64,000 bases of DNA, from positions 906-64,905 of the forward strand of contig JAGWBS010000040.1 in NCBI GenBank assembly GCA_021295775.1. Reading direction: 5' to 3'. Source of the stretch: Pseudomonadota bacterium (GTDB taxonomy: Bacteria > Myxococcota_A > UBA9160 > SZUA-336). The notes under the pieces were generated by a model. It saw nothing but the letters and a program-made list of their open reading frames with translations. It had not been told where the DNA came from and did not search any database. This document shows positions 10,564 through 32,688 of this stretch, one piece after another. The number at the start of each line of letters is the position of its first letter. The stretch's first letter is position 1. The position numbers were made by a program, and so were the translations under genes.

Positions 10564-11336
10564 GGAAGGTCCTCCCAGCACAACTCCCCGGCGTCGAGCA
10601 CGGGCCCCTGGGTGCACAGATAACGGAATCCGTCCCTTACCGGGACCACGCAGCCGAGGCAGATGCCGAAACCGCAGGCCATCGTGCTTTCCAGGGAGAC
10701 CGAGCAGGGCGCCCTCGCCTCCTCTGCCAGGGCGGCGACCGCCCGCAGCATGCCGTTCGGTCCGCAGGCGTAGACGCTCTCCCCGGGCCGAATCCCGAGT
10801 CCGTCGGTCACCCTTCCCTTCCGGCCCGCGCTGCCGTCCTCGGTCGACACGCTCAGCTCGCAGTCCAGAGCACGGAAATCCTCCAGCCCGAGGAGCTCGG
10901 CCTGCGTGGCGGCTCCGAGGGCGACGCGCAGCGGACCCGACGAGTCGCGCGCGAGCTCGTACAGCGAAGCGATTCCCGTCCCGCCGCCGACCAGCAGCGC
11001 GGCTCCCTCGGGAAGCCGGAAACCCCGCCCCAGAGGACCTACCACGGCGACCGCTTCTCCCGGCGCCAGCGACCCCATGATCCGGGTCCCCCGGCCGACG
11101 GGTCTGAAGCGGAACTCCAGCGCGTCGCCTTCGCGCCGGTAGACCGCCATCGGCCGGGGGAGCAGCGGGTCGACGCGCTCCAGCCCCGGGTCGAGCTGCA
11201 GCATCGCGAACTGCCCCGGCGCGTGCGCGGGAAACCCCGGCGCTTCGAGACGCAGCGCAAAGGGCCCGGAGTCCAGGACGCGGCCGACGACCCGACGTCG
11301 CTCCGCGTCGTGCCCGGGGCGGGTCTCAGGTCGCAT
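10560..11336 (-). CDS. pyrK: Dihydroorotate dehydrogenase electron-transfer subunit (PyrK)
   Basis: Start ATG 11336 (MRPETRPGH...). It has an FAD/NAD-binding ferredoxin-reductase fold and a C-terminal 2Fe-2S cysteine cluster, MACGFGICLGCV. It overlaps the upstream regulator gene by 11 nt. Confidence 0.88.
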   Translation of the reverse strand: MRPETRPGHDAERRRVVGRVLDSGPFALRLEAPGFPAHAPGQFAMLQLDPGLERVDPLLPRPMAVYRREGDALEFRFRPVGRGTRIMGSLAPGEAVAVVGPLGRGFRLPEGAALLVGGGTGIASLYELARDSSGPLRVALGAATQAELLGLEDFRALDCELSVSTEDGSAGRKGRVTDGLGIRPGESVYACGPNGMLRAVAALAEEARAPCSVSLESTMACGFGICLGCVVPVRDGFRYLCTQGPVLDAGELCWEDLP

Positions 11337-12699
11337 GGCGGTGTTTCTCGACGTCGATCCCCAGGCTGCGCAGCTTGCGCGAAAGGGTCTCCCGGGCCAG
11401 CCCAACGACCTGCGAGGTGCGCGAGATGTTCCAGCCGTTGTCGCGCAGCTTCTGAGTCAGGTACTCGCGCTCGAACAGCGCGCGCGCCTCGGCCAGGGTC
11501 TGTGCGCCCGCGCCCTGCGGCAGACTCACGCGCTCGGGCGAGGAAATCTGCGGCGGTAGACCGTCCACATCGATCTGGCTGCCGGGCGTCATCAGCACGA
11601 CCCGCTCGACGACGTTCTGCAGCTCGCGGACATTGCCCGGCCAGGGATAGTCCATCAGACGGGCGAGCGCCCGCGGGGTCAGACGGGGCGGGGTCTTCCC
11701 GGCCTCCGCGGCGAAACGCGCCAGAAAACGTTCGGCGAGCAGAGAGATGTCGCCGCGCCGCTCGCGCAGCGGGGGGACGTGGAAGGGAATCACGTTGAGG
11801 CGGTAGTAGAGGTCTTCGCGGAAGCGCCCCTCGGCCATCTCGGCCTCGAGGGCCTTGTTGGTGGCGGCAACGACGCGGACATCCACGTCGAGCGTCTCGG
11901 TGCCGCCCACGCGCTCGAAACGATGCTCCTGCAGGATCCGCAGGATCTTCGCCTGGGTCATCAGCGACATGTCGGCGATCTCGTCCAGGAACAGGGTGCC
12001 GCTGTCGGCGATCTCGAAGCGCCCCCGCTTTCTCTTGATGGCCCCGGTGAAGGCGCCCTTCTCGTGGCCGAACAATTCGCTCTCGATCAACTCCTCGGGG
12101 ATGGCGGCGCAGTTGACCGGAACGAACGGCCGGTCGCTGCGGTTGGATTGCAGGTGGAGCTGACAGGCGACGAGTTCCTTGCCCGTGCCGTTCTCGCCGG
12201 TGATCAGCACCCAGCCGTCGGTCGGCGCGGCGATGGAGATCTGCCGCTTCAGATCCCGCATCGACTCCGTTTCGCCACATATCTCCGTGTCGCCCATCAG
12301 CTGCTCGCGCAGCAGACGGTTCTCGCGCTCGAGGCGCGCGCTGTCCATGCTGCGCTGCAGGCACAGGATCAGGTTGTCGTAGGACAGGGGTTTCTCGAGA
12401 AAGTCGTAGGCGCCCAGCTTGGTGGCGCGAACCGCGGTGTCGATCGTGCCGTGGCCCGACATCATCACCACCGGCAGCGCGGGATGCCGACCGCGCAACT
12501 CCTCCAGCAACTCGAGTCCGTCCCGGCCCGGCATGGAAACGTCGAGCAGCACCACGTCGGGCGCGTCGGAATCGACCAGGCTCAGGGCGCGCGAAGCGTC
12601 CGCGGCCGTGACCGCCGTGTAGCCCTCGTCGGTCAGAATGCCGGAAACGCTGTGAAGGATGCCCTCTTCGTCGTCGACGATCAGAACGGTTCGCGACAC
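11326..12699 (-). CDS. Sigma54-dependent response regulator (NtrC/NtrX family bacterial enhancer-binding protein)
   Basis: GTG 12699: VSRTVLIVDDEEGILHSVSGIL... is the receiver domain. The AAA+ core reads VLITGENGTGKELVA...GAFTGA...ESELFGHEKGAFTG. The C-terminal HTH reads NISRTSQVVGLARETLSRKL. Confidence 0.93.
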   Translation of the reverse strand: MSRTVLIVDDEEGILHSVSGILTDEGYTAVTAADASRALSLVDSDAPDVVLLDVSMPGRDGLELLEELRGRHPALPVVMMSGHGTIDTAVRATKLGAYDFLEKPLSYDNLILCLQRSMDSARLERENRLLREQLMGDTEICGETESMRDLKRQISIAAPTDGWVLITGENGTGKELVACQLHLQSNRSDRPFVPVNCAAIPEELIESELFGHEKGAFTGAIKRKRGRFEIADSGTLFLDEIADMSLMTQAKILRILQEHRFERVGGTETLDVDVRVVAATNKALEAEMAEGRFREDLYYRLNVIPFHVPPLRERRGDISLLAERFLARFAAEAGKTPPRLTPRALARLMDYPWPGNVRELQNVVERVVLMTPGSQIDVDGLPPQISSPERVSLPQGAGAQTLAEARALFEREYLTQKLRDNGWNISRTSQVVGLARETLSRKLRSLGIDVEKHRHAT

Positions 12700-12701
12700 G
12701 C

Positions 12702-14924
12702 CTACGCCCTGACCGGCAGTTCCACGATGAAGCGGGTGCCGCGCGGCTGATTTCCCCGCACTCGAATCGTGCCCGAGTGATCCGAGACGATGCGGCTGAC
12801 GATCGCCAGGCCGAGGCCGGACCCTTCGCGCTTGGTCGAGTAGTAGGGCTCGAACAGGCGCATTCGTTCCGCGGGTTCCAGGCCGGTTCCGGTGTCCGCG
12901 ACCTCCAGCGCCACGGTTCCCAGTTCGCGGTCGAGGCTCGTCGCCACTCGCACCCGGCGCGGCCCGGCGCCGGCGTCGTCGATCGCCGCGGTCGCGTTGT
13001 CCAGCAGGTTCAGGATCACCCGCTTGATCTGTTCGCGGTCCAGGTCGAGCGTGGGCAGTTCCGGCGCCAGATCCGTCTGGAAGTCGATGCGGGTATGGCC
13101 GCGGTACAGCTCGATCACCTCGCCCACCAGGGCGTTGATGGCGGTCGGCGCGGGATCGGTCGCCGGCAGGCGCGCGAAGTTCGAGAACTCCGTCAGCATC
13201 TGCTTGAGCGATTCCACCTCGCGGGTGATCGCGGCGGTGGACTCCTCCAGCAGTTCGCACGATTCCGCGTCCTCCAGACGCCCCATCAGGCGCCGATTGA
13301 GGCGTTGGGCGGAGAGCTGGATCGGGGTCAGGGGATTCTTGATCTCGTGCGCGATGCGCCGCGCGACGTCCCGCCAGGCGGCGGTGCGCTGCGCGCGCAG
13401 GATCTGCGTGACGTCGTCGATCACCACCACGAATCCCCCCGCCTCGCCTTCCAGGCCGTGGATTCGGGTCGCCGTCCAGTTCAGGGTGCACAGCTCCTCG
13501 TTCAACACGATCTGGACCTGTTTGCGCAGCACCTGCCGGGGGCCGACGGCGAGCCGGCGCAGCAGCGATGCGAGGGTGCGCTGCGCCTCGCCTTCCAGGA
13601 GTTCGTCGATCTTGCGCCCATACCACTCCGCGCCCTGCACGCCCAGCAGGCGCAGCGCGGACGGATTGATGGTCCGCACGACCCAGTCGCCGTCGAGCGA
13701 GATCACGCCCGCCTCGACGTTGTGCACGATCGCCTCGAGCTGTCTGCGGCGGCGGTCGAGGGCATCGCGGCTGGCGCGCAGGTCGCCCGCCATGCGGTTG
13801 AACTCGGCCACCAGGGTTCCGATCTCGTCGTCTCCCACCTGCTCGACGTGCACGTCGAGATTGCCCGCCGCCACCTCCGTCGCGGCGCCGGCCAGGCGCT
13901 GGATCGGCTCGGTGATCTGCTTGGCGAGCCGAAACCCGATCCAGGTCGAGAACAGCAGACTCGCGAGGGCGAGGATCCCCAGATAGACCGGCGTGCTGCT
14001 CTCGAGCGCGCCCTCGCTGGGCTGCAGGCGCTGGTAGGCCGCCAGCCCCGCTTCGATCTCCGCGACGTGCTCCCCGATGCCCTGGGCGACGAAGCGGTTG
14101 ATCACGACCACCGCCGCGACCTCGTCCGAGCCCTCGCCGGCGTAGATCGGCACCAGCGCGCGCACCAGTTCGCCTCCCGCGGCACTGGCCACGTGCGTCT
14201 GCTCCACCCCGTCGAGCCCCTCCCGCACCAGGTCCGAGTTGGGCGACTCGAACGAGACCACGGCGCGCTCCGGGTCGGTCGCGCCGGCCAGAAGTTCGCC
14301 GCCGGCGTCGAACACTTCGACCAGCGCCAGGTCGTACTCGGCCTGCTTGAGGGCCACGTGCCGGTTCAGGTTCGGGCTCCCACCGGGATGCAGCAGGCCG
14401 CGCTCTCCGATCTGGGTGGCGATCCGCCGGCCGAACAACAGCGCGATGTCTTCCTGGTCCCGGTAATAGGACTGCGACAGGGCCACGGAGCGGCGCAGCC
14501 CCTCGGCCAACTCGAGTTCGAACCAGGCGTTGATGACCCGAACCAGCAGGTACCAGGACGACGCGAACAGCAGGATCGACGAGATCCCCGTGACCAGCAC
14601 GAACGACAGCACGAAGCGCGTGTTCAGCTTGGCCCCGAAAATCCCGCGGCGGCGTTCGATCACCAGCTTGACGACGTTGCGTCCCAGCAGGAACACCAGC
14701 AGCCCGATCAGGCTGACGGTCGCCGAGAGCATCGCCCAGAGCGCCGCGTCGCTGCGCAGGGGGCGCGCCACCAGCAGATCCGGCTGCAGCGCGACCAGCC
14801 CGGCGAGCAGGGTCGCGATGAAACCGGCGATCAGCCAGTCGCGCCGGCGCCGGCGGCGCTCGGCGGAGGAGAGCCTCGACGAGCTGCGCGCGAACTCGTC
14901 CGCAAGTGTCTTCGGCGTCGCCAA
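12702..14924 (-). CDS. NtrY-like sensor histidine kinase (TM-HAMP-PAS-HisKA-HATPase)
   Basis: 740-aa ORF. It has N-terminal TM helices and the H-box IAHEIKNPLTPIQLSAQRL. ATPase motifs include DNATAA...DTGTGL...GSGLGLAIV. The TTG start at 14924 is not supported by a clear SD. Confidence 0.9.
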   Translation of the reverse strand: MATPKTLADEFARSSSRLSSAERRRRRRDWLIAGFIATLLAGLVALQPDLLVARPLRSDAALWAMLSATVSLIGLLVFLLGRNVVKLVIERRRGIFGAKLNTRFVLSFVLVTGISSILLFASSWYLLVRVINAWFELELAEGLRRSVALSQSYYRDQEDIALLFGRRIATQIGERGLLHPGGSPNLNRHVALKQAEYDLALVEVFDAGGELLAGATDPERAVVSFESPNSDLVREGLDGVEQTHVASAAGGELVRALVPIYAGEGSDEVAAVVVINRFVAQGIGEHVAEIEAGLAAYQRLQPSEGALESSTPVYLGILALASLLFSTWIGFRLAKQITEPIQRLAGAATEVAAGNLDVHVEQVGDDEIGTLVAEFNRMAGDLRASRDALDRRRRQLEAIVHNVEAGVISLDGDWVVRTINPSALRLLGVQGAEWYGRKIDELLEGEAQRTLASLLRRLAVGPRQVLRKQVQIVLNEELCTLNWTATRIHGLEGEAGGFVVVIDDVTQILRAQRTAAWRDVARRIAHEIKNPLTPIQLSAQRLNRRLMGRLEDAESCELLEESTAAITREVESLKQMLTEFSNFARLPATDPAPTAINALVGEVIELYRGHTRIDFQTDLAPELPTLDLDREQIKRVILNLLDNATAAIDDAGAGPRRVRVATSLDRELGTVALEVADTGTGLEPAERMRLFEPYYSTKREGSGLGLAIVSRIVSDHSGTIRVRGNQPRGTRFIVELPVRA

Positions 14925-15113
14925 ATCGCCCGAGACGCTAGCCCAGGCCGACCGAGGCTTTCAATCGAAATCCGCGGCCCGCCGACGGCGGACGACCCGC
15001 TCTCGACCGCCTCCGCGCGGAGCGCGAAGCCGCACAGAAGCGTCAGCGGCAGCTTGGAGGACTGCCTGGATGCGAGCCTTGGAATCCCCCCGGGCGCCGC
15101 CGCCAGAAGGGCC

Positions 15114-16070
15114 CTAGGCGGTTCGCAGACCGCGCACCCTCACCGGGGCGACGTCGCCCGCCTGCCGCTCGCCGGGCGCATCGACCGTCCAGCAGCTGGG
15201 GTTCGCGCGGATCTCCGCGACCAGCGCCTGGTGCAGCGCGTGCCCCGCCCGCACCGCCTTGACGTGCCCCTGGATCGGCAGACCCAGCAGAGCCAGGTCG
15301 CCGATCAGGTCGAGCGCCTTGTGGCGCACGAACTCGTCGGGGAAGCGCAGCCCGTCCCGGTTCAGCACGCGCTCGTCGTCGAGCACTACGGCGTTCTGGA
15401 GCGACCCGCCGCGCGCCAGCCCGATGCTCTGCAGGCTCTGGACTTCGCGCAGGAAGCCGAAGGTGCGCGCCGGGGCGATCTGGCGCGCGAAGAAGCGCGG
15501 CGTGATCCTGCAGCCGACCAGCTCCTGCGAACCGATGGCCGCGTGCGGATAATCGATCGAGGTGGAGATCTTGAAGCCGCGCGAAGGCAGCACGCGCACC
15601 CAGCGATTCCCGTCGCGCACCTCAATGGGACGGTGGATCACCAGCCGGCGGCGCATGCGGCGCTGGGGCCGCAGTCCGGCCTGCTGGAGCAGATAGACGA
15701 AGGGGGCGGCGCTGCCGTCCATGATCGGAAGTTCGGGACCCGAGACCTCGACCGTGCAGTTGTCGACTCCCAGACCGCGCAGGGCGGCCAGCAGATGCTC
15801 GACCGTCGAAAGCCGCTCGCCCCGGTTTCCCAGCGAGGTGGCCAAGTTCGTGTCGACCACCCACTCGGCGCGGGCCGGAAAGCGGAGTCCGTTCAGGTCG
15901 CGGCGCACGAACAGGATCCCCGTCCCCGCGGCGGCTGGATTCAGGACCAGTTCGACGGGGCGACCGGTGTGCACGCCGATGCCCGTGCACTGCACGCGGC
16001 TGGACAGGGTGTGCTCCCCGCCCCTCAGCAAGTCACTGTTGTCGATCTGCCGCAAGTCAGCCCCTCTCAA
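15114..16070 (-). CDS. lpxC: UDP-3-O-acyl-N-acetylglucosamine deacetylase
   Basis: Translation ...RVQCTGIGVHTGRPVELVLNPA...STVEHLLAALRGLGVDNCTVEVSGPELPIMDGSAAPFV...HKALDLIGDLALLG... The start is ambiguous. TTG 16070 is preceded by GAAGG. TTG 16055 is preceded by GAGAGGGG-N5. Confidence 0.93.
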   Translation of the reverse strand: MRGADLRQIDNSDLLRGGEHTLSSRVQCTGIGVHTGRPVELVLNPAAAGTGILFVRRDLNGLRFPARAEWVVDTNLATSLGNRGERLSTVEHLLAALRGLGVDNCTVEVSGPELPIMDGSAAPFVYLLQQAGLRPQRRMRRRLVIHRPIEVRDGNRWVRVLPSRGFKISTSIDYPHAAIGSQELVGCRITPRFFARQIAPARTFGFLREVQSLQSIGLARGGSLQNAVVLDDERVLNRDGLRFPDEFVRHKALDLIGDLALLGLPIQGHVKAVRAGHALHQALVAEIRANPSCWTVDAPGERQAGDVAPVRVRGLRTA

Positions 16071-16110
16071 CGACCTTCAACCCGCACGGGCAGCAATCTC
16101 GTGGAGCTAT

Positions 16111-16126
16111 AGCAAAATCGGTGCCA
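16111..16126 (-). promoter_or_regulatory. Sigma54 (-24/-12) promoter upstream of lpxC
   Basis: The minus strand reads TGGCAC-CGATT-TTGCT. This is an exact match to TGGCAC-N5-TTGCW with correct GG/GC spacing. It lies 41 nt upstream of the first possible lpxC start, in an AT-rich spacer. Confidence 0.6.
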
Positions 16127-16139
16127 TTCTAAAGAACGG

Positions 16140-16160
16140 CTCGAGAACTCGTCTCTCGAG
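16140..16160. repeat. Inverted repeat A (CTCGAGA-N7-TCTCGAG)
   Basis: Perfect 7-bp arms, centred about 30 bp upstream of the sigma54 element. Confidence 0.8.
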
Positions 16161-16237: not shown

Positions 16238-16260
16238 CTCCGAAACCGGCTCTTTCGGAG
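16238..16260. repeat. Inverted repeat B (CTCCGAAA-N7-TTTCGGAG)
   Basis: Perfect 8-bp arms with the same 7-nt spacer length as repeat A. It lies about 130 bp upstream of the sigma54 element. Confidence 0.8.
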
Positions 16261-16281
16261 TCGAAGTGACATTTTCGTTAC

Positions 16282-16303
16282 GGCGTGACGATCGCGTCAC
16301 GCC
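16282..16303. repeat. Inverted repeat C (GGCGTGACG-ATCG-CGTCACGCC), possibly the TauE-gene terminator hairpin
   Basis: Perfect 9-bp arms with a 4-nt loop, 58 nt downstream of the TauE-family stop. No U-tract follows on either strand. Confidence 0.8.
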
Positions 16304-16360: not shown

Positions 16361-17100
16361 TCACAACACAAACAGCAGGCGCAGCGCCATCGCCAGTACG
16401 GCCAGGGCGACGACCGGCCGCAGAAATCTCTCTCCGCGCCGCGCTCCGAATCGGGAGGCGACGTACCCCCCGACCGCCGAGCCCGCCGCCAGCGCCAGAC
16501 CCGGAATCCACCAGACCTGACCCGACCCGGCGAAAACCGCCAGCGCCAGACTCTGCTGGACGGTATTGATCGCCACTTTGGCGGCGTTGGCCCGCACCAG
16601 GTCGAGTCCCGCGACCGCCACCAGCGCCATCAGCAGCGGAATCCCCAGACCGGCCTGGACCACCCCGCCGTAGAAACCCATGGCCGCGAAGCTGAGTTGA
16701 ACCGACGCGCCAGTCCGGGTGCGCCGTTCGAACTGGGCGGAGGGTCTCCACAGCAGCGGCAGAAACGCCAGCATCAGCAGGGCGAAACCGAACTGGAACC
16801 ACTCGTCGGGCACGCGCGTGGCCAGCGACGCGCCCAGCAGGGTGCCGGCCAAGGTCGCGGGAAGGAAGCGCAGCGCGACCGTCAGTTCGCGCACCCCCTC
16901 GCGGCCGAATCCCGCCACGGCGGCGGCGCTCTGGGCCGCCACTCCGATGCGGTTGGTCCCATTGGCGATCCCCGCGGGTACGCCCACGAAGATCAGCAGC
17001 GGAACCGTCAGGAACGACCCGCCGCCCGCCAGCGTGTTGAGGGCGCCGGCCAGCGCGCCTCCGACCAGCAGGGTCAGCCAGTGCTCCGGCGCGGTCAGGT

Positions 17101-31524: not shown

Positions 31525-31989
31525 CTACATCTGCTCGGCCAGATAGGCCGCCTCGCCGATCTTCTCGACGATGCCGAGCTGCGCCTCGAGCCAGTCGACC
31601 GACGACTCCTCGCTCTCCAGCATCTCTTCGAGCAGGTGCCGGGTGCCGTTGTCGCCGTTCTCGTGCGAAAGCCGGATGGCTTCGTTGAGCCGCTTGGTGG
31701 CTTCCAACTCCATTTCCAGGTCCAGGCGGTGCTGCTCGATGGGGTCCTCGCCCACGCACACCGGATTCATGCGCTGCATGTTGGGAACCCCACCGAGAAA
31801 CAGGATGCGTTCGATCAGGTGGTCCGCGTCGCGCATTTCCTCCAACGACTCCTCGCGCTTCTTGCCCGCCAGCTTGGAGTAGCCCCAGTTCTCGCACATC
31901 TTGTAGTGCACGTAGTATTGGTTGATCGCGGCCAGCTCCGCGCTGAGAATGGCATTGAGCGCTTCGACGACTTCCTGATGGCCCCGCAT
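31525..31989 (-). CDS. bfr: Bacterioferritin
   Basis: 154 aa: MRGHQEVVEALNAILSAELAAINQYYVHYKMCENWGYSKLAGKKREESLEEMRDADHLIERILFLGG... Confidence 0.95.
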   Translation of the reverse strand: MRGHQEVVEALNAILSAELAAINQYYVHYKMCENWGYSKLAGKKREESLEEMRDADHLIERILFLGGVPNMQRMNPVCVGEDPIEQHRLDLEMELEATKRLNEAIRLSHENGDNGTRHLLEEMLESEESSVDWLEAQLGIVEKIGEAAYLAEQM

Positions 31990-32026
31990 CTTCAGTTTCC
32001 CTTCCGTTGGGATTCGAACTCACGCC

Positions 32027-32055
32027 AAAATAGCGTCCCGGGACCGCGAATTCAA
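32027..32055 (-). promoter_or_regulatory. Candidate sigma70 promoter for bfr
   Basis: The minus strand has TTGAAT (32055-32050), a 17-nt spacer, then TATTTT (32032-32027). An AT-rich block lies immediately upstream (32056-32110). Confidence 0.35.
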
Positions 32056-32130
32056 TCTAAGTTATTGATTTAATTGGGGAAATGAGATAGACACTGATTC
32101 TCACTCTCAACTCTGGGAGCTCCTAGGGCC

Positions 32131-32688
32131 GTGCACCGCGAACCCCTTCTGAAGCTTCTGGAAAGCTTCCTGTGCGTGCGGCCGTCCGACCGCGAGCGGG
32201 TGGAACGGGTGCGCCGCTTCGTGCTGGACCAACCCGACTGCTTCGAGCGCGGCTGCGTTCCCGGACACATCACCGCCTCGGCCTGGATCGTTTCCCCGGA
32301 CCGCGAGCGCTTCCTGCTGACGCGCCACCGCAAACTCGGACGCTGGCTGCAGCTCGGCGGCCACGCGGACGGCGACCCCGACCCGCTGCGCGTCGCCCTG
32401 CGCGAGGCGCGCGAGGAGTCGGGCATGCGGGAGTTCGAAGCCGTGCCCCCGGAGGGACCCGGACTGCCCCTCGACGTCGACGTGCACCCGATCCCGGCGC
32501 ACGGCTCGGAGCCGGCCCACCTGCACTACGACCTGCGCTTTCTGCTGGTCGCGGGCCCCGGACAGTCGCTGGTGTGCTCGGCGGAGTCCGACGAACTGCG
32601 CTGGTTCCCCCGCGCCCGGGCGTCCGAGGTCCTGGAAGAGGCGAGCCTGCGGCGGCTGGCTGAGCGCGCCGGAACGCTCTCGGAGTAG
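32131..32688 (+). CDS. NUDIX hydrolase
   Basis: 185 aa with the Nudix box GGHADGDPDPLRVALREAREESGM. The GTG start lacks a well-placed SD. Confidence 0.85.
   Translation: MHREPLLKLLESFLCVRPSDRERVERVRRFVLDQPDCFERGCVPGHITASAWIVSPDRERFLLTRHRKLGRWLQLGGHADGDPDPLRVALREAREESGMREFEAVPPEGPGLPLDVDVHPIPAHGSEPAHLHYDLRFLLVAGPGQSLVCSAESDELRWFPRARASEVLEEASLRRLAERAGTLSE

Follow-up and report, generated by a model that had tools for sequence, protein, structure and literature searches.

On the minus strand of the 64 kb stretch of DNA analysed here (the window), lpxC is followed by the genes for a sensor kinase and a sigma-54 activator. The lpxC gene, encoding UDP-3-O-acyl-GlcNAc deacetylase, lies at 15114..16070 (-) and was assigned by its Pfam LpxC domain (E 3e-106) and by the NCBIfam model TIGR00325, which it matched with 340 bits against a cut-off of 187; one copy was found in this genome. 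The first possible start codon is the TTG at 16070, and the TTG at 16055, with GAGAGGGG just before it, is the likely start of the gene. Upstream lies the gene for a TauE-like membrane protein (16361-16987, Pfam TauE), separated from lpxC by a spacer of 290 nt with a GC content of 0.58, versus an average of 0.70. LpxC performs the committed, usually essential step of lipid A synthesis, and the textbook form of its control is proteolysis.

A preliminary description of this DNA had named the next genes on the same strand as an NtrY-like kinase and an NtrX/NtrC-type activator, and this is borne out by their Pfam domains and by a GAFTGA motif. Specifically, the gene at 12702..14924 (-) encodes an NtrY-like sensor histidine kinase with Pfam HAMP, PAS, HisKA and HATPase domains, in which the HAMP-PAS-HisKA-HATPase part is preceded by four transmembrane segments read from the sequence, the last of them set off from the first three by an outside loop of about 180 aa; the protein reaches no NCBIfam equivalog. 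The gene at 11326..12699 (-) encodes an NtrX-like sigma-54 activator with REC, AAA+ and HTH_8 domains, carrying the phospho-acceptor D53, the Walker A motif GENGTGKE, GAFTGA at 215-220 and the Walker B motif DEI, and its best model in NCBIfam was NtrX, at 497 bits against a required 600. The stop codon of the kinase gene is 2 nt from the start of the activator gene, and no other gene comes between them.

In the spacer ahead of lpxC, the minus strand at 16111..16126 reads TGGCAC-CGATT-TTGCT (TGGCACCGATTTTGCT, from 16126 to 16111), which is, as originally described, an exact match to the sigma-54 promoter consensus TGGCAC-N5-TTGCW. The -24 GG falls at 16125/16124 and the -12 GC at 16113/16112, giving the spacing GG-N10-GC, and the element is intergenic and in the orientation of lpxC. 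From the usual spacing of 12 nt, the transcription start is predicted to lie near 16100. The promoter ends 41 nt before the first possible lpxC start (TTG 16070), the distance first given, and 56 nt before the likelier start (TTG 16055). What did not hold was the statement that this spacer has the lowest GC content in the window, since its value of 0.58 compares with about 0.53 near 31.8 kb, where the lowest-GC stretch of the window extends over about 31800-32170.

Matches of this quality are rare. The 64 kb window has no match to TGGCAC-N5-TTGCW other than the one at lpxC, shuffling having given an expectation of 0.03, and the whole 3.38 Mb assembly (70% GC) holds five exact matches, the lpxC site included, which mostly precede classic sigma-54 targets. 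A sigma-54 weight matrix based on the published consensus ranked the lpxC site third genome-wide, and sites of at least 13 bits at -350..+60 were present at 15 of 2779 crudely called genes (0.5%). The background frequency, which the preliminary description had singled out as a point to check, is thus very low. The same description had noticed other TGGCAC strings inside the cytochrome gene, without a TTGC partner; by way of a small correction, the window contains eight such strings, and the four at 23.5-24.9 kb have no TTGC partner. An apparent depletion of TGGCAC in the window (8 versus 29 expected from dinucleotide shuffles) disappeared under a 4th-order Markov expectation (ratio 1.07), which indicates that the scarcity reflects composition, not avoidance.

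As for sigma-54 itself, whose absence had been named as a reason to drop the initial proposal, rpoN is intact in this genome and encodes a protein of 481 aa with region I and the RpoN box ARRTVTKYR, and there are about five sigma-54 activators, that is, about four besides the NtrX-like one. The other top intergenic sigma-54 sites precede a P-II gene, glnB-glnA, an activator gene and lptC-lptA-lptB-rpoN. Since nitrogen genes are classic sigma-54 targets, these sites serve as an internal positive control.

For comparison we collected the lpxC loci of 40 relatives at the level of genus, family and class. In all of the first 30 loci, our own included, a sigma-54 promoter (13-20 bits) was the top-scoring forward-strand match within 450 nt upstream of lpxC, and it persisted as LpxC identity dropped from 79% to 50%. 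Two further families have the site too, which brings the total to 32/32 of the genomes, again with our own, that keep an ortholog of the activator; the conservation of the motif upstream of lpxC, on which the initial proposal had been made to depend, therefore extends to every one of them. Within the site GG, GC, an A in position 5 and the T that precedes GC in position 13 never change, and the spacer and flanks vary freely. Since the unchanging columns were chosen by the matrix, the background rate of 0.5% is the non-circular statistic.

These data bear on the simplest objection, namely that TGGCAC-N5-TTGCT is a chance match without function in an AT-richer spacer. Short motifs do arise randomly, and 3 of 100 shuffles of the window contained a match, but the scarcity of exact matches in the 3.38 Mb and their position mostly before classic sigma-54 targets, the retention of the site in every activator-keeping relative while its flanks diverge, and the conserved enhancer that accompanies it (see below) make such an origin extremely improbable.

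To judge from its nearest named records, the genome analysed here is a metagenome-assembled one of Myxococcota. The named records with the site include Myxococcus xanthus, Corallococcus, Pyxidicoccus (where it is weaker), Archangium and other Myxococcota, and it also stands before lpxC in several Desulfobacterota, two Nitrospirota and one Acidobacteriota genome. It was absent from the Burkholderiales/Casimicrobiaceae, Acidobacteriaceae, and alpha- and gammaproteobacterial records that were checked.

When the 40 relatives were searched for the activator, one ortholog per genome was found at E <= 1e-135 in 32 genomes, our own included, and these are exactly the 32 with a sigma-54 site at lpxC. 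The six genomes of one family (f5, L127-L132) have no activator ortholog at this threshold, though rpoN is present, and their lpxC genes have neither a sigma-54 site nor the enhancer, the best scores being 1.4-9.8. In five of these six, the DNA as read places lpxC directly after an apparent Ser/Thr protein kinase gene; the sixth has another upstream gene. The co-occurrence of activator and promoter is consistent with co-inheritance of the two but amounts to roughly one evolutionary event.

A further sigma-54-type site, TGGAACGGGTTTTGCT, lies outside the window (contig C79:29841-29856 (+)), 82 nt before lptC-lptA-lptB-rpoN. A related pattern, NGGTAYR-N4-TTGCW, is conserved before lptC/lptA in 13 of the 16 relatives checked from the families that have the lpxC promoter (L135-L152), at about 70-640 nt before lptC or, where lptC went unmatched, about 1.0-1.2 kb before lptA, and is missing in three of four f5 genomes. 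The lpxC regulon may include LPS transport and sigma-54 itself.

The gene order around lpxC varies. Most relatives have the activator ortholog 10-11 kb farther downstream than lpxC, on the same strand, and the gap between lpxC and the regulators holds a convergent gene for a TPR-repeat protein of 2576 aa (in relative G002, locus L124, 4695-12425 (+)). No homolog of this gene was found in our genome by tblastn (E <= 1e-5), and its absence explains why lpxC, kinase and activator are adjacent here. Minus-strand ORFs between lpxC and ntrY in the relatives were considered as genes and discarded, as they have no Pfam hits and the real gene is the TPR protein on the opposite strand. Judging from this arrangement, lpxC is monocistronic in the relatives with the intervening TPR gene. 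The same tight order lpxC-kinase-activator was also seen in Desulfarculus and a second deltaproteobacterial genome, in the promoter-bearing Acidobacteriota genome and in one genus of the family. In four Desulfobacterales-type loci (L061, L068, L069 and L074) a kinase and activator lie near lpxC and the sigma-54 site before lpxC is absent; there lpxC is followed by an extra gene and then by ntrY-ntrX-like genes. A weak conserved GGGRACARGTTTTGCT is found about 100 nt after lpxC in L061, L068 and L069, with none in L074. The wiring of this clade looks different.

The regulators most likely have a weak promoter of their own. The 189 nt gap after lpxC contains a candidate sigma-70-type promoter, TTGAAA-N18-TAGCGT, at 14935..14964 (-), and in relative G002, where lpxC is 8 kb away, a two-sequence comparison revealed a similar TTGGAA-N18-TAGCGT before ntrY. 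A formal scan of the lpxC-ntrY gap called no sigma-70-type promoter and no terminator, and the proposal that TTGAAA-N18-TAGCGT might be the promoter in question is made with low confidence. With the large intervening gene of the relatives absent from this genome, the kinase and activator genes may here also be reached by read-through from lpxC.

Sigma-54 promoters work with activators bound upstream, and a candidate enhancer was found by anchoring the upstream regions of the relatives on the -24 element. The alignment contained a second conserved island of the form GTGAY-N6-RTCAC, 3-4 nt, GTRAY-N6-GTCAC. Of 30 relatives, 28 have this tandem layout, two dyads of 16 nt with a gap of 3-4 nt, and the remaining two have a loose form of it; the distance from its start to the -24 element is 142-174 nt, or 97 nt in two genomes of one genus. 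In the window the candidate enhancer reads GTGACGCGATCGTCAC-GCC-GTAACGAAAATGTCAC (16300-16266), that is, GTGAC-N6-GTCAC-N3-GTAAC-N6-GTCAC. Dyad 1, GTGACGCGATCGTCAC, is a perfect GTGAC-N6-GTCAC palindrome at 16285..16300 (-), and dyad 2, GTAACGAAAATGTCAC (GTAAY-N6-GTCAC), follows after 3 nt at 16266..16281 (-). The centre of dyad 1 is about 192 nt upstream of the predicted transcription start, with the whole enhancer about 170-190 nt upstream.

In the 3.38 Mb assembly, which is 89% complete, GTGAC-N6-GTCAC occurs once, before lpxC, where about three copies would be expected from base composition. A single copy suggests a regulator with one target, and lpxC is probably the one target in this genome of the enhancer and hence of the activator. 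At the same place Myxococcaceae have a dyad of the form GACAYC-N2-TGTCRCGGTG, and Desulfovibrio and Syntrophales have dyads made of GTGG/GTGT, a T-rich stretch and CCAC/ACAC. About a dozen relatives (L009-L031) have an extra GTG-N8-CAC dyad about 70-90 nt before -24, which is absent from the window. Between enhancer and promoter no IHF-like core WATCAANNNNTTR was found with up to one mismatch. The same interval contains a perfect inverted repeat, CTCCGAAA-N7-TTTCGGAG, at 16238-16260 (-), which has no T-run and no obvious conservation among relatives. A comparison of the entire window with Rfam matched no RNA family.

A precedent for this arrangement comes from Desulfovibrio. DAP-chip and gel shift identified lpxC as the one target of the D. 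vulgaris sigma-54 activator DVU2934 (Rajeev et al. 2011, PMC3333781), whose operon also encodes an HD-GYP response regulator and the kinase, DVU2931 (PMC3333781; Kazakov et al. 2015, PMC4641369). In D. alaskensis G20 (Dde_3000/Dde_3003) a sigma-54 site, CGGCACGATTATTGCT, lies just before the mapped lpxC start, the activator site GTGTAAAAAACACACA is centred at -101, and a kinase mutant has raised lpxC mRNA, lpxC being the only over-expressed gene (Kuehl et al. 2014, PMC4045070). Rajeev et al. also noted that lpxC lies directly upstream of the orthologous regulator operon in Syntrophobacter fumaroxidans, and they detected their motif in close relatives of Desulfovibrio only (PMC3333781).

Our activator is the reciprocal best hit of an activator in a Desulfovibrio sp. 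(E 1e-132 to 1e-138, next paralog 1e-118; 50-57% identity), which comes after a REC-PAS-HD-GYP gene just as DVU2934 comes after DVU2933. The only full-length match of our kinase in that Desulfovibrio genome (E 3e-101) is on the same strand, 2.8 kb upstream of the activator. Since this gene order reproduces the DVU2931-2934 layout, the two systems appear to be orthologous, and from the gene context around the reciprocal best hit we infer that our activator is orthologous to DVU2934 itself.

Whether the promoter answers to this activator or to another of the genome has nevertheless to be weighed. About four further activator genes are available, the enhancer motif is unlike the one bound by the Desulfovibrio ortholog, so that its assignment to the adjacent activator is based on adjacency, co-occurrence and orthology only, and the M. 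xanthus ortholog is less distinct from its paralogs (E 1e-120 versus 1e-115) and has no NtrY-like kinase beside it. Control by a different activator is nonetheless improbable, given the perfect co-occurrence of the ortholog with promoter and enhancer across 38 genomes of the class, the linkage of the activator gene to lpxC on the same strand in most genomes, and the orthology to a regulator shown to bind lpxC only.

A more serious question is whether the sigma-54 promoter, though real, is auxiliary and provides a conditional boost, with the bulk of lpxC transcription coming from an unrecognised sigma-70-type promoter or from read-through. As regards read-through, the terminator scan reported a hairpin, CTCGAGAGACGAGTTCTCGAG, at 16140..16160 (-), followed by a T-rich tail to about 16130; it sits 13 nt upstream of the -24 element, is terminator-like, and has a counterpart in M. 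xanthus, where a similar hairpin and T-run occupy the same place before lpxC. The probable role of this hairpin, placed after the upstream TauE-like gene and ahead of the promoter, is to keep transcripts of that gene from running on into lpxC. As regards a second promoter, a scan with the E. coli consensus found no sigma-70-like site in the 290 nt spacer or in the spacer of M. xanthus; such a scan is crude, and its evidence weak, in a genome of 70% GC, which leaves room for a second lpxC promoter. The mapped lpxC start in D. alaskensis is the one behind the sigma-54 site (PMC4045070), which again argues against an auxiliary role. In its favour, lpxC is normally essential, and to make it dependent on an activator that requires a signal looks risky; moreover the D. 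alaskensis kinase reduces the output of the activator in standard medium and the cells still grow (PMC4045070). On balance an auxiliary role is possible, with the odds against it.

Taken together these results favour, with a probability of roughly 85%, the reading that lpxC is preceded by a functional, enhancer-dependent sigma-54 promoter. The preliminary description had gone further and thought a self-contained sigma-54 circuit on lpxC conceivable, a proposal that gains support from the genome-unique enhancer, the co-occurrence and the orthology to DVU2931/DVU2934. In such a circuit sigma-54 RNA polymerase would wait as a closed complex on TGGCAC-N5-TTGCT, and the membrane-bound NtrY-like kinase would phosphorylate the NtrX-like activator on D53. 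The activator would then bind the tandem dyads about 170-190 nt upstream, oligomerise, loop to the promoter and spend ATP to open it. The rate of lipid A synthesis would in this way be set through lpxC transcription, in answer to a signal that is probably related to the envelope.

The same elements can be traced to a well-studied organism. In M. xanthus TGGCATGCTGCTTGCT is found about 100 nt before the lpxC ATG, with a conserved dyad upstream, and the activator has an ortholog of 498 aa by reciprocal best hit (WP_171443295; L116, G043:C317), for which a cluster look-up returned only generic names. The gene of this ortholog adjoins a pesticin/lysozyme-like gene, and no NtrY-like kinase is next to it. 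The rpoN gene of M. xanthus could not be deleted, for a reason described as not elucidated (Leang et al. 2009). It is conceivable, though doubtful, that Myxococcota transcribe lpxC, which is essential and single-copy, from the sigma-54 promoter only, in which case sigma-54 and the activator would be indispensable for the outer membrane; if true, this would explain in a simple way why M. xanthus cannot do without rpoN. Within the literature searched we found no paper linking lpxC and sigma-54 in Myxococcus and none tying the essentiality of rpoN in M. xanthus to lpxC; lpxC is not mentioned by Francke et al. 2011 or Leang et al. 2009, and a 2026 transposon preprint has nothing on rpoN or lpxC.

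If the comparison of sequences is a guide, lpxC seems to be transcribed throughout a whole bacterial class from a sigma-54 promoter that answers to a dedicated membrane sensor system, with the same wiring apparent in the named Myxococcus, Corallococcus and Archangium genomes checked and in some genomes of neighbouring phyla. A mechanism proven in Desulfovibrio would thereby extend to a much wider group. The GTGAC-N6-GTCAC tandem, as a defined candidate enhancer, provides an experimental handle, and the long-standing essentiality of sigma-54 in M. xanthus acquires a testable hypothesis.

How does this system compare with those already known? Sigma-54 control of lpxC has been published for Desulfovibrio, and the system described here shares that type of circuit. 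Both have a -24/-12 sigma-54 promoter directly before lpxC and a palindromic enhancer upstream, a REC-AAA+-HTH activator with GAFTGA, an NtrY-like kinase ortholog in the same operon, and apparently a single target, which is deduced here from the enhancer count alone and there from binding experiments. They differ in the enhancer, which is a tandem of GTGAC-N6-GTCAC (GTG-N10-CAC type) at about -170 to -190 here and of the GTGT-N5-ACAC type at -101 there, and in the HD-GYP response regulator, whose gene is lacking here between those of kinase and activator. In our genome lpxC, kinase and activator adjoin one another, whereas the D. vulgaris locus tags of lpxC (DVU2917) and the activator (DVU2934) differ by 17, and the phylum here is Myxococcota.

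With the alphaproteobacterial NtrY/NtrX systems our pair shares the kinase architecture and the NtrX model as the best NCBIfam match of the activator, whose score stays under the equivalog cut-off. In R. sphaeroides NtrYX controls cell-envelope genes and its loss raises lpxC mRNA 8.8-fold, an effect judged indirect since no NtrX binding site was found at lpxC (Lemmer et al. 2020, PMC7240162). Here, in contrast, the sigma-54 promoter and the candidate enhancer are directly at lpxC.

In its layout the locus also resembles that of a nitrogen gene. The enterobacterial sigma-54 promoter glnAp2 is likewise enhancer-dependent, its tandem activator dyads lying over 100 nt upstream, and the genes of that locus are in the order glnA-ntrB-ntrC. 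In both cases the kinase and activator genes come after the target gene, an order that permits positive feedback through read-through; the process here is lipid A synthesis and not nitrogen assimilation, however, the dyad sequence differs, and co-transcription is putative here, most relatives having the convergent 2576 aa gene between lpxC and the regulators. In E. coli LpxC is controlled through proteolysis by FtsH/LapB (cited in PMC3333781), which is post-translational, whereas the control proposed here would be transcriptional and exerted through a dedicated signalling system. Compared with the published Desulfovibrio circuit, what is new is the enhancer motif, which is unlike that of Desulfovibrio, the gene order, and the apparent conservation of the system across Myxococcota, M. 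xanthus included.
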